Source of the DNA: an uncultured Bdellovibrio sp.
GTDB lineage: Bacteria; Bdellovibrionota; Bdellovibrionia; Bdellovibrionales; Bdellovibrionaceae
DNA: 64,000 nucleotides
Assembly (NCBI GenBank): GCA_963932905.1
Contig: CAWVRN010000005.1
Location: 96,001-160,000, forward strand
Direction of reading: 5' to 3'
A program made the position numbers and the translations under genes. This document shows positions 7,366 to 42,387 of the stretch, piece by piece. How positions within the stretch are numbered: the first letter of the stretch is position 1; each line of letters starts with the position of its first letter. Below the pieces are notes generated by a model that saw nothing but the letters and a program-made list of their open reading frames with translations, was not told the DNA's origin and did no database searches.

Positions 7366-7416
7366 GTGCCAGGCTACTTTTCTGGAAGCAACGCTTCCAG
7401 AAAAGTAGCCTGGCAC
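7366..7416. repeat. Perfect 24-bp inverted repeat between convergent genes (REP-like palindrome or bidirectional terminator)
   Basis: GTGCCAGGCTACTTTTCTGGAAGC-AAC-GCTTCCAGAAAAGTAGCCTGGCAC. Confidence 0.85.
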
Positions 7417-30751: not shown

Positions 30752-30766
30752 ATAAAAAATCCCAAG

Positions 30767-31005
30767 TTTTTTCGGGGGCGATAGACTCCCTTCTTAAGAA
30801 AGATTCCAGGTGTAAATGGGGATCTTTCTCTTGAATGGGAGTTTTCTTTTTTGGAGGACGCCCTCCAGGCTCGGCCACCGGTTGGCTACGCCAACAATAC
30901 CGCATCCATGCGGCGGTGGAGCCTCCAAAAAAGAAAACTCCCATTCAAGAGAAAGACCGAGCTCGAATCGTTTCTTAAGAAGGGAGTCTATCGCCCCCGA
31001 AAAAA
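30767..31005 (+). repeat. Rod-shaped 239-nt palindromic element, copy 1 (MITE/REPIN-like or structured ncRNA)
   Basis: Two perfect 35-bp stems (30767-30801/30971-31005 and 30823-30857/30922-30956) separated by an internal loop; branched apical region. Confidence 0.85.
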
Positions 31006-31203
31006 TTCTCCACACCGCAACCTTTTTTATGACCATAGTTGTTGTTCCGTTCTTGAGATGCTTTTGGATCATAAAAAAAATGTCGGATAAACCACGAAAC
31101 CCACACAAGGCAAAACCCTCGCTTTCAAAATCTCGGGGGATTTTCCTCTCACTGCGCCAAGTCCTCTAGTCCCAAAACAATTCCGAAAACTTCGTGAAAA
31201 AAG

Positions 31204-31220
31204 TTGGCGTGCACATTGCT
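31204..31220 (+). promoter_or_regulatory. Putative sigma54 (RpoN) -24/-12 promoter
   Basis: TTGGCGTGCACATTGCT: GG-N10-GC with TGGC and TTGCT. Confidence 0.7.
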
Positions 31221-39272: not shown

Positions 39273-41438
39273 ATGTCTGTGATCGTACTACCTGAAAAAT
39301 ACTATCTAACCCATTTCTTTGAGCTTATTCAGCATTTAGAAGCTCACTACCAACAGGTATTTGAACCGGCCCACGTAGACTTCCTGAAATCCTTTTATGC
39401 GCTTTCCGAAGATGCCAAGTGTGCCTATGTTCGCATGATCAATCGAAAAGGTTTGGTTTTTAGTAATGTTTCGTTCACTAAATATCCCGAAATCGCAGAT
39501 CCGATGGCGGCGTTAAAAGAGTTAGACGAAGCTCGATTTCTTTCTCGAGTGAACGAGTCAGATAAGCCTCTTTTAACAGAATTTTTAACCAAAACAGATT
39601 TGGCCAAATGGTTGAAAAAATCGGGATTACGGGTGGCCTCGTCGGAATCTCGTGGTGATTTAATTATCAAAGCGCAAACACATCAAGATCAACTCCTGCT
39701 AAGTAATTTGGACATGCATACTGATCTTTTTGTCCAACGTCGATTTGAAGAATTAGATTATTTGTTATTTTTATATTTTGGAAAAATTCAACGAAACTTA
39801 ACGTTATATACATTACGTGATTTGGGTATTCGCCAAGCCCATTCATTAAAGAATGATTTTAAAGCTCGATACACAGATTTGTCGTCAGCAAAACAAGACT
39901 ATTTTTTCTATTCAGAAATTGAACGTCTTGGTGAGGTTCAATCTGAAGCAGAAATTTTAGAAAAACTTGAGTTCAGTCGTTCCGCTCCATCCAATCCTAT
40001 TAAAGATCAATGGTTGTTGGGCGTGGCGATTAAATTTGAAGATTTGAATCGAGACATTACGCTGTTGGCTTTGAATAGCTGCCAAAGTCACCCGGCGCGT
40101 GAGCGGAAGGCTCGATTGTTGTACAAATGGGAACAAGTAGAACAATCGAAGGCCGTTTTGGACGCGATAATAGAAGATCCACATTGTGACGAAGAACTTT
40201 TATTCGCCGAAGATTTTTTTGCGAGAAAATTCGGTAAAAAACGAACGGGTTCATTGACAGATATTTTAAATAATTCAAAACAGGTCACACTCAGTGATAT
40301 TTTTTTAAAAAAACCAGAGCAAGGCGTAATCGATTTATATGAAAAACAAGGTTACACCGGTCAGTTTGTTGAAAACTATCTTTGGGTAGGTTTGTTTGGA
40401 TTGATTTTCTGGGATGAATTGTTCACCGGTCCTATGGCTAAATTGTTTAATCCTTTTGATCGTAAACCAGCAGATCTGACTGGTCCGGATTTCTACAATC
40501 GCAATGAAGTACTTTTAGAATCAAAATTAGTTCAAATGAATGACTATAACGCGATCGAATTTATTATCCTTAAAACAGTGACGGAACACTATGGTAAGAT
40601 GAATGATTTGTTTCAATGGTCCACAAACCTAGCGCCAATGGTTTTGGACTTCGTCAGAAAGACCAGAAATAAAAATGTCGCTCATATCTTAAGAACTATG
40701 GCACGTCGGTTTGATGTTTATCACAGTGGTTACCCTGATTTGATGCTTGAGAAAAATGGCGAGATTAGTTTCATCGAGGTAAAGGCTGATGGGGACTCAT
40801 TAAAATATAAGCAATTGTCAAAAGCTCGTTTGCTTCGTGAAGCTGGCTTTGATGTTGAAGTTTTAAGGGTCAAATGGCAAAGCGATCCTAATCAAGTTTA
40901 TGTAGTTGTAGATTTGGAAACGACGGGTGGTGCTCCTCATTCTCATCGTATTACCGAAATTGGTGCTGTCAAAGTTCAAGGTGGAAAAATTATCGATGAA
41001 TTCCAAACTTTGATTAATCCCGAGCGACCGATTCCCCCGTTTATCGAGAAACTAACTGGTATTACTAACGAGATGGTGGCAACGGCTCCGAAATTCTCTG
41101 AAGTGGCTGAACGATTTAATCAATTTACGGACGGTGCAATTTTCGTCGCACACAACGTGAAATTTGACTATGGTTTTATTCAAAAAGAGTTTTCTAGAAT
41201 TGAACAAGATTATTCGCGCACACATTTGTGCACCTGTATTGGCATGAAGAAAAGTTTCCCTGGGATTAAATCTTATGGATTGAAAAACTTAACCAATCAT
41301 TTTCAAATCTCGTTGACCCAACATCATCGCGCGTTGTGTGATGCTCAAGCATCAGCAGAACTATTATTATTAATGACAGGCTATAAGGAACCTAATCCAC
41401 GCAAAACGGAAGAACCCGTAGCTGAACAAGAAACCTAA
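39273..41438 (+). CDS. FAN1-like VRR-NUC nuclease fused to a DEDDh (DnaQ-like) 3'-5' exonuclease
   Basis: FAN1-type N-terminus (YYLTHF...YVRMINRKG); GYPDL...FIEVK PD-(D/E)xK motif; VVDLETTG, AHNVKFD, HHRALCDA. Confidence 0.88.
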   Translation: MSVIVLPEKYYLTHFFELIQHLEAHYQQVFEPAHVDFLKSFYALSEDAKCAYVRMINRKGLVFSNVSFTKYPEIADPMAALKELDEARFLSRVNESDKPLLTEFLTKTDLAKWLKKSGLRVASSESRGDLIIKAQTHQDQLLLSNLDMHTDLFVQRRFEELDYLLFLYFGKIQRNLTLYTLRDLGIRQAHSLKNDFKARYTDLSSAKQDYFFYSEIERLGEVQSEAEILEKLEFSRSAPSNPIKDQWLLGVAIKFEDLNRDITLLALNSCQSHPARERKARLLYKWEQVEQSKAVLDAIIEDPHCDEELLFAEDFFARKFGKKRTGSLTDILNNSKQVTLSDIFLKKPEQGVIDLYEKQGYTGQFVENYLWVGLFGLIFWDELFTGPMAKLFNPFDRKPADLTGPDFYNRNEVLLESKLVQMNDYNAIEFIILKTVTEHYGKMNDLFQWSTNLAPMVLDFVRKTRNKNVAHILRTMARRFDVYHSGYPDLMLEKNGEISFIEVKADGDSLKYKQLSKARLLREAGFDVEVLRVKWQSDPNQVYVVVDLETTGGAPHSHRITEIGAVKVQGGKIIDEFQTLINPERPIPPFIEKLTGITNEMVATAPKFSEVAERFNQFTDGAIFVAHNVKFDYGFIQKEFSRIEQDYSRTHLCTCIGMKKSFPGIKSYGLKNLTNHFQISLTQHHRALCDAQASAELLLLMTGYKEPNPRKTEEPVAEQET

Positions 41439-41979: not shown

Positions 41980-41997
41980 ATTTTTTGAACCCCCCGG

Positions 41998-42237
41998 TTT
42001 TTGGGAAGGGAAGAGACTTCTTCTTTTCCTTGAAGCTTGGTTCTGGGTGGTGCGGGGATCTTCCTTTTGAGATGCTTTTTTAAAAAGATATAAAAAAGCC
42101 TCGGCAGTCCTCGTCCGCGCTGAACGCGTGTCTGTGGAACTCATTTTTTTATATCTTTTTAAAAAAGCATCTCAAAAGGAAGACCAGGCTTGAATTGGCG
42201 CTTCGAGGAAAAGAAGATGTTTCTTCCTTTCCAAAAA
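41998..42237 (+). repeat. Rod-shaped 240-nt palindromic element, copy 2
   Basis: Perfect 39-bp inner stem (42059-42097/42145-42183); outer stem with G.T wobbles; same internal-loop motif as 30767-31005. Confidence 0.85.
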
Positions 42238-42387
42238 TTACCCAAATACCCAAAAACTTAGATTTCGTCCATTTTCTTGGCTCTTCACAAGCTTGGCCGC
42301 CTCATTTCCTATATAATGGCTTTGGTGGCAGCGAATTCATTGATTAATTTCACGGGGGAAATTTAGAGTCGAATTGCCTAGGTAAGT

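Follow-up and report, generated by a model that had tools for sequence, protein, structure and literature searches.

The repeats closest to those described here are REPINs, which are presented in PMC3116915 and PMC3337134 as dispersed, extragenic and non-autonomous hairpins with variable stems and compensatory changes, presumed to act as single-stranded DNA (ssDNA). In the same accounts two conserved inverted REPs surround a variable spacer, and copies of that REP also flank the RAYT gene. The REPIN literature leaves open by what means stems stay perfect although no two copies of a hairpin repeat are alike. Integron attC sites also work as folded ssDNA, show little sequence conservation in their stems and lie just after a stop codon, according to PMC5737381. 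A third group consists of ssi, or primosome-assembly, sites such as ColE1 ssiA (PMC3167613 and PMC5778457), together with the GNA-capped ssDNA hairpins of PMC13037366. The last of these sources reports that GNA mini-hairpins are very stable as DNA while an RNA counterpart tested is much less stable, and places such mini-hairpins at ssDNA priming sites, namely the G4 origin, RSF1010 ssiA and N4 promoters.

Here we compare with these systems two rod-shaped elements in a stretch of 64,000 nucleotides from an uncultured Bdellovibrio sp. (contig CAWVRN010000005.1, positions 96,001 to 160,000), which as a whole is called the window.

Results

Two rods in the window

The original prediction for 30767-31005, a rod in which an internal loop separates two perfect 35-bp stems and the apex is branched, is borne out as written, and the loop is asymmetric. 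Both stems of this copy 1 are 100% complementary, its folding z-score is -18.3, and none of 200 shuffles folds equally well; a model from which copy 1 was left out recovers it at E 2.9e-16. The second rod, which had been placed at 41998-42237 with its start less than 20 nt after a plus-strand stop, is also found there and folds with a z-score of -12.1. The distance from the stop to the rod is 15 nt in copy 1 (stop 30751) and 18 nt in copy 2 (stop 41979), and the genes upstream are a 647-aa ORF without a Pfam match and ychJ, respectively. The proposed size of about 240 nt holds for the stems and the rod, but conserved flanks exceed the outer stem by ~15 nt on the left and ~25 nt on the right and extend the element to ~280 bp (Table 1).

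Table 1 Parts of the two rods, in positions of the window
Feature	Position	Strand	Remark
Copy 1 left flank, A-run then CCC	30752..30766	+	family-wide conserved; directly 3' of the 647-aa ORF stop
Copy 1 outer stem left arm	30767..30801	+	35 bp, fully paired to 30971-31005
Copy 1 internal loop 5' strand	30802..30822	+	variable, G+T rich, GGGGA end
Copy 1 inner stem left arm	30823..30857	+	35 bp, fully paired to 30922-30956
Copy 1 apex type B	30858..30921	-	branched, two small hairpins
Copy 1 apex-B hairpin	30881-30895	-	minus-strand C(GNA)G triloop
Copy 1 inner stem right arm	30922..30956	+	
Copy 1 internal loop 3' strand, conserved CCGAGCTYGAAT	30957..30970	+	type-A paralogues 85% identical here
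Copy 1 outer stem right arm	30971..31005	+	
Copy 1 right flank, CCACACCGCA-type motif then T-run	31006..31030	+	family-wide conserved
Copy 2, type A, 3' of ychJ	41980..42260	+	relatives G003 and G006 filled at the same locus
Copy 2 outer stem	41999-42036/42200-42237		38 bp, 87% complementary
Copy 2 inner stem	42059-42097/42145-42183		39 bp, perfect
Copy 2 apex type A with cross-phylum two-strand core	42098..42144	-	strand 1 42100-42113, strand 2 ~42131-42142

A comparison with Rfam had been proposed together with the rods. Within the 64-kb window no Rfam 15 family reached the gathering threshold, and the elements at 22 further loci gave generic miRNA-like hairpin matches only, all of them sub-threshold. 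An opposite-strand joint at 30801/30970 in contigs of four DNA runs lies inside the 35-bp repeat and was rejected as an assembly ambiguity. One depth-3 contig from DNA runs skips 42003-42207 at a 4-nt microhomology and is too weak for use. Elsewhere in the window, a sigma-54-like -24/-12 site, called by eye from the consensus, lies at 31205-31219 upstream of a 1141-aa ORF, and 39273-41438 encodes a 721-aa protein in which a FAN1-type HTH, a VRR-NUC and a DEDD exonuclease domain are fused.

Copies in the genome and the genus

The rods had been proposed as a new multi-copy family, and this is upheld: a perfect-inverted-repeat scan with a profile search gave 13 full and 4 partial copies in this genome (three of the partial ones at contig ends), and the two-stem element occurs in five of ten genus genomes. 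Full copies run in the order left flank, outer stem, internal loop, inner stem, apex and right flank. Two types of apex are found. Type A, 47 nt long and nearly invariant, is carried by 10 full copies here including copy 2, while type B, a three-way junction of 64-65 nt, is carried by 3 including copy 1. Among 151 family genomes type B occurs in five, all of one genus and the same five that contain the two-stem element. The apex and the 3' loop strand are the sequence-conserved parts of the family. Since the original prediction compared one type-A copy with one type-B copy, only the loop appeared shared and the apex, which is the most conserved part, was missed. The arms, which were then held not to be alignable by eye, do align at the family level, with a mean identity between type-A paralogues of 0.77 for the inner and 0.63 for the outer arms.

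Several loci, both window loci among them, are common to relatives, and the locus of copy 1 holds two facing elements in G003 and G006. Many copies are old and vertically inherited, many are common to species ~82% identical in flanking genes, and collapsed and degenerate remnants of rods also exist. Empty orthologous sites, another proposed check, were found: among ten inspected loci that are filled in relatives, nine are empty in this genome and one contains a remnant. The empty sites could be losses, and target-site duplications and exact ends are unreadable because the genomes are ~80% identical. The apex type differs between species at three loci, one of which also has an inverted interior. 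Conversion would explain the alternation of A and B at one locus, and independent insertion at favoured sites would do so equally well.

Copies stand as singles or facing pairs beside housekeeping genes, and the nearest integrase is 13 kb from a copy. Judged from ORF context only, none of the 17 copies of this genome was seen beside a tRNA. Facing pairs 330-470 nt apart are located at L042:1050-1520, L092:1240-1580, L105:1250-1650 and G000:C29:14820-15160; one pair encloses a 92-aa ORF and the others have no clear ORF. In the 40 nt past the right flank of 44 copies the plus strand is skewed to G+T (0.68). We also observed a 14-nt micro-insertion, made up of an 11-nt core plus a purine-purine-C repeat of 3 nt, in both apex types, the loop strand and the right flank, in both orientations, in tandem and also outside rods (G000:C29:15117-15158; L059, L042, L093, L094, L097, L103, L108; G000:C19:65280, C23:13981).

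The family is apparently undescribed. No literature report with the core strings was found, and the supplements of PMC2864571, in which gapped alignments could hide a match, gave none.

Joint rewriting of the arms

Stem statistics were taken from 44 full copies, after 15 of 59 matches that were partial or not parsed had been excluded; in two of the 44 the outer arms do not match each other, and these two may be chimeric. In the inner stem 1626 of 1658 pairs (98%) are Watson-Crick, and only 2 of the 32 mismatches are G.T. The outer stem has 1440 Watson-Crick pairs out of 1544, with 104 mismatches. When the same locus was compared between genomes (10 pairs, not independent), both arms had changed at 65 of 77 changed positions in the inner stem and at 45 of 79 in the outer stem. 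The prediction that the structure is kept while the arms are rewritten or homogenised is therefore well founded. Arm identity at the same locus is similar to or below that of the upstream gene (26/35 vs 89%, for example), and the arms drift at about the rate of the neighbouring genes, or faster.

A 14-row type-A alignment gave two-sided changes in 26 of 42 inner-stem pairs, a number that 0 of 500 shuffles reach. The plus-strand loop helix, for which a conserved Y.Y/R-T/G-C stack had been proposed, gave two-sided change in 0 of 7 pairs, with 76.5% of cells paired, and it is the minus strand that seems to fold. The helices of the type-A core show no two-sided change and so provide no evidence of covariation. 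As G.U intermediates are expected from selection on an RNA helix and not from arm-to-arm copying, the near absence of G.T counts for copying.

Two kinds of locus show directly the run-on of arm copying past the stem. At L097 in G003 an inverted copy of the 5' strand stands in place of the 3' loop strand. In all seven tRNA-adjacent single-stem relatives (described below) the tRNA lies to the left on the same strand, and 0-29 nt of its 3' end fall within the stem. The left-to-right direction of the overlap may be imposed by selection on the tRNA, which copying in the reverse direction would damage.

The type-A core beyond the genus

Through the covariance model, single-stem elements came to light in other genera, where the type-A core caps a stem of unrelated sequence; such relatives are present in complete genomes of cultured Bdellovibrio. 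The exact core pattern occurs in 26 of 401 phylum genomes, with a reversed-pattern control of zero, and in at least 123 GTDB stretches, and the phyla among the 80 matches listed are Bdellovibrionota, Actinomycetota, Omnitrophota, Planctomycetota, Bacillota and Latescibacterota. A stem adjoins 115 of 127 distinct cores. The core also exists in a circularly permuted form, found in at least 123 further metagenome stretches, and 55 of 69 distinct permuted cores have 14 or more flanking pairs. No neighbour gene of the cores recurs beyond duplicate or orthologous loci. The type-A core is a small module, probably of ssDNA, that is reused by unrelated repeats in several phyla. Copy 1, with apex B, is without this core and has the loop, the flanks and the GNA hairpin in common with the family. 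At L557 (G314:C6:134500-138200) a tRNA-Pro end, an arm and the core are directly duplicated 1.2 kb downstream; the duplication surrounds a 161-aa ORF without a Pfam match and resembles a small island.

The capped half of the permuted core is found once in ColE1, near position 1343, and 0 of 2000 shuffles match this degenerate 15-nt motif, which was defined post hoc. We take this position to be the ssiA region. The exact likeness to ColE1 is at chance (11 nt vs a shuffle maximum of 12), and the flanking blocks come in another order. The cap is also present in at least 121 viral stretches. The 80 viral matches listed include 10 small genomovirus-like circles, two of them confirmed with a geminivirus-type Rep, 6 inovirus-like contigs, and 27 matches in dsDNA prophage-type contexts (19 inside one ORF and 8 in P2-like regions). 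In the genomovirus-like circles and the inovirus-like contigs the GNA strand is the cap or gene strand, presumably the virion strand. The circles, of ~2.3 kb, carry the capped half-core in the rep region (L582, L585, L597, L599, L605, L613, L645, L649, L653 and L655). A loose permuted pattern gave noise in the viral scans; the strict patterns gave 3 matches each, and the 3 open-form ones lie in GC-rich, ORF-dense sequence and look like chance.

These observations bear on an alternative in which the type-A core is a portable signal for single-strand initiation, akin to an ssi or primosome-assembly site, which PriA, primase or another universal host protein would recognise. Core-bearing repeats would then prime local or extrachromosomal second-strand synthesis, from which arm rewriting and spread would follow without an enzyme of their own. 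Such a role would suit a core that is invariant across six phyla, in two circular permutations and on unrelated stems, and that is tracked by no dedicated enzyme among those profiled (Y1 and reverse transcriptase, below). It would also suit the presence of the capped half in ColE1 and in viral stretches including ssDNA virus-like contigs, and the mini-hairpins at the G4 origin, RSF1010 ssiA and N4 promoters. However, the exact ColE1 match does not exceed chance and has its flanking blocks reordered, plasmid BLAST returned nothing specific, about a third of the viral matches listed fall in the dsDNA prophage-type contexts, and apex B of copy 1 has no core. In addition, PriA is described in PMC5778457 as recognising a fork-like structure, so that sequence invariance is not expected from PriA alone. 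We consider this alternative rather unlikely. A wider form of it is a speculation to which we give a similarly low weight: an invariant ssDNA module, in either permutation, might recruit a universal priming or restart protein, might have been adopted by chromosomal repeats of many phyla, small ssDNA viruses and plasmids, and might in this genus drive the spread of a 280-bp transposase-less element that rewrites its own arms. If this were true, the elements would represent a class of host-replisome parasites.

The folded strand

Of 127 cores, 46 have an apical loop that reads C(GNA)G on the reverse strand and 3 have it on the forward strand, and a further 24 read C(AAA)G. Type-B hairpins are C(GNA)G in 21 of 22 cases, with the middle base free. 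Mismatches point in the same direction. On the plus strand of the single-stem relatives A.C outnumbers G.T (182 vs 98) and C.T outnumbers A.G (106 vs 47), and in the permuted set the corresponding counts are 62 vs 34 and 87 vs 24; these rows include related genomes and are not independent. An excess of A.C and C.T on the plus strand means G.T and G.A on the minus strand. Among 44 copies, 23 have a same-strand stop within 60 nt and 3 show the mirror arrangement, and a hand count for the single-stem relatives gave 45 against 16. As the element follows a same-strand stop and the GNA loop is on the minus strand, the folded strand seems to be the one antisense to the gene upstream, and this speaks against an RNA of the 3' UTR. 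Although the interior is flipped relative to the flanks in 2 of 44 copies by motif and in a third by eye, the apex is reversed relative to the loop in 0 of 45, which suggests that both are read together on one strand.

These strand signals point to folded minus-strand ssDNA as the probable working form. The original prediction had left the choice between a non-coding RNA and an ssDNA substrate; the GNA triloops and the mismatch asymmetry fit the latter better. Several counts run against a minus-strand reading. The outer stem is without minus bias (G.T 35, A.C 23), and 15 of the 24 inner A.C mismatches in the two-stem set are one inherited site. Nearest-neighbour energies with DNA parameters favour the minus strand of apex B in 2 of 19 cases only. 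In 13 of 17 copies it is the plus strand that is G-rich and not the one with the GNA loops, so that in most cases the GNA strand would not serve as template for the lagging strand. A replichore bias of 13 of the 17 copies here was not used, as it is not independent of gene direction.

The preference of copies for sites just 3' of same-strand stops or tRNA ends would be explained by a structured RNA, be it a double-stranded 3' UTR that is a target of RNase III or stabilises the mRNA, or a small antisense RNA made from the minus strand. The enrichment of G.T and G.A suits RNA too, and G.U pairs are possible in the plus-strand loop. Yet G.U on the mRNA strand is nearly absent from the stems (2 of 1658 pairs), the triloops are of the DNA type and sit on the antisense strand, and the loop helix lacks two-sided change. 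The minus strand near either window copy has no promoter-like site, with terminator-like matches at chance level, and no Rfam family matches. An RNA is therefore an unlikely explanation.

Search for a moving enzyme

Two scans of neighbouring proteins, which covered 72 of ~140 and 72 of 141 ORFs, gave 0 of 72 and 0 of 72 proteins that are a transposase, recombinase or reverse transcriptase. This genome does contain two RAYT-like genes, which are flanked by two other repeat families and not by the rods. These REP-like families have 21 and 38 motif matches, and a 24-bp inverted repeat of one of them lies at 7366-7416 of the window. No core strand was found at 32 Y1 loci. Of 50 genomes, 28 have the core and 23 of these encode Y1, as do 21 of the 22 without the core; one single-contig genome has 5 cores and no Y1. 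By the covariance model 20 of the 22 core-negative genomes are still negative. As Y1 or RAYT neither tracks the core nor shares its flanking repeat, it was rejected as the partner, and the RAYT/HUH link proposed earlier finds no support.

That the rods are the REPINs of a RAYT (Y1 HUH) transposase encoded elsewhere in the genome is accordingly very unlikely. The idea has some appeal, since REPINs keep their hairpin while spacers differ per copy and compensatory changes are common (PMC3337134 and PMC3116915), two RAYT-like genes exist here, and facing element pairs occur. But besides the foreign repeats at both RAYT genes, the Y1 loci without a core strand and the distribution of Y1, the conserved parts of the rods are asymmetric and internal and do not form inverted terminal REPs.

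Other candidates were also discarded. Of the 28 genomes with the core 12 have a reverse transcriptase, compared with 8 of the 22 without it, and 7 single-contig core-positive genomes have none; no IS110 gene is present in this genome; and GIY-YIG gave a single 672-aa match only. Pairing of the loop with the flanks, as in a guide-like bridge RNA, was no better for a copy's own flanks than for permuted ones (p 0.22-0.96, 16 tests, 40 copies). Separately, L029 (G000:C30:7007-10606) encodes a reverse transcriptase preceded by a small ORF and followed by an AAC-rich repeat, an arrangement that looks like a diversity-generating retroelement (DGR).

Discussion

We favour, at somewhat better than an even chance, the reading that the rods are REPIN-like, non-autonomous elements of folded ssDNA, dispersed, extragenic and ~280 bp long, with arm-to-arm copying. 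A protein would read the apex, with its GNA-capped hairpins and G.A-rich internal loops, together with the loop on the minus strand, and apex and loop would keep their relative orientation because one protein reads both on one strand. The rod would fold during replication, and the nascent strand would fold back or switch template and copy one arm from the other. Template switching of this kind may perfect the stem nearest to the apex most often, may at times continue past the stem, into the loop or the end of an adjacent tRNA, and may occasionally invert the interior. New copies and apex swaps could come from a trans-acting ssDNA-processing activity encoded away from the copies, or from conversion between copies.

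Inert relics of an old burst, in which quasi-palindrome correction keeps the arms perfect and the apex is no longer read, would agree with the many copies common to species ~82% identical in flanking genes, the collapsed and degenerate remnants and the negative enzyme search, but such relics are highly improbable given that the arms drift around a conserved apex and 3' loop strand, that the apex is reversed against the loop in 0 of 45 although interiors flip, that the G and A of the GNA loop are fixed while N varies, and that apex types A and B alternate at the same locus.

The same-locus series in five species and the single-stem relatives in cultured Bdellovibrio make arm copying directly measurable. 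As a short and invariant sequence common to many enzyme-less repeats of different phyla, the type-A core can serve as a bait, and identification of its binding protein could explain a large set of orphan repeats together. Should the process be merely generic template switching on a REP-like hairpin, the value would lie in a new repeat family and a tidy example.

Comparison with known systems

A MITE of a DDE insertion sequence would have terminal inverted repeats common to all copies; the outer arms of the rods are 63% identical between paralogues and lie within conserved, non-inverted flanks. A link to Flavo-1 was dropped, as there is no Rfam match and the Flavo-1 rows compared look different. 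The active strand of attC is the bottom strand, and in rods as in attC the antisense strand appears folded. Rods also share with attC the low conservation of the stems and the position just after a stop codon. Unlike attC, they are scattered beside housekeeping genes, form no cassette arrays, have no integrase within 13 kb and possess a conserved, not a variable, apex; conserved R boxes at both hairpin ends, compared by eye with the box consensus, are absent.

Some of the single-stem relatives resemble the E. coli tRNA-linked repeats (TLRs) in standing directly behind tRNA genes and repeating the tRNA 3' end, but TLRs, according to PMC8144298, end in a direct copy of 18-19 bp of the tRNA end, whereas the copy in the rod relatives is inverted. 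A BLAST search with apex B in E. coli gave no match. The ssi sites share the GNA-capped ssDNA hairpin and are single sites in replicons, while the module of the rods caps long variable stems in chromosomal repeats. The rods are like REPINs in being dispersed, extragenic and non-autonomous and in keeping a hairpin with compensatory stem changes. They lack the two defining traits of REPINs, the inverted REPs at the ends and a linked RAYT gene; what is conserved in them is an asymmetric apex, one loop strand and flanks that are unlike each other.
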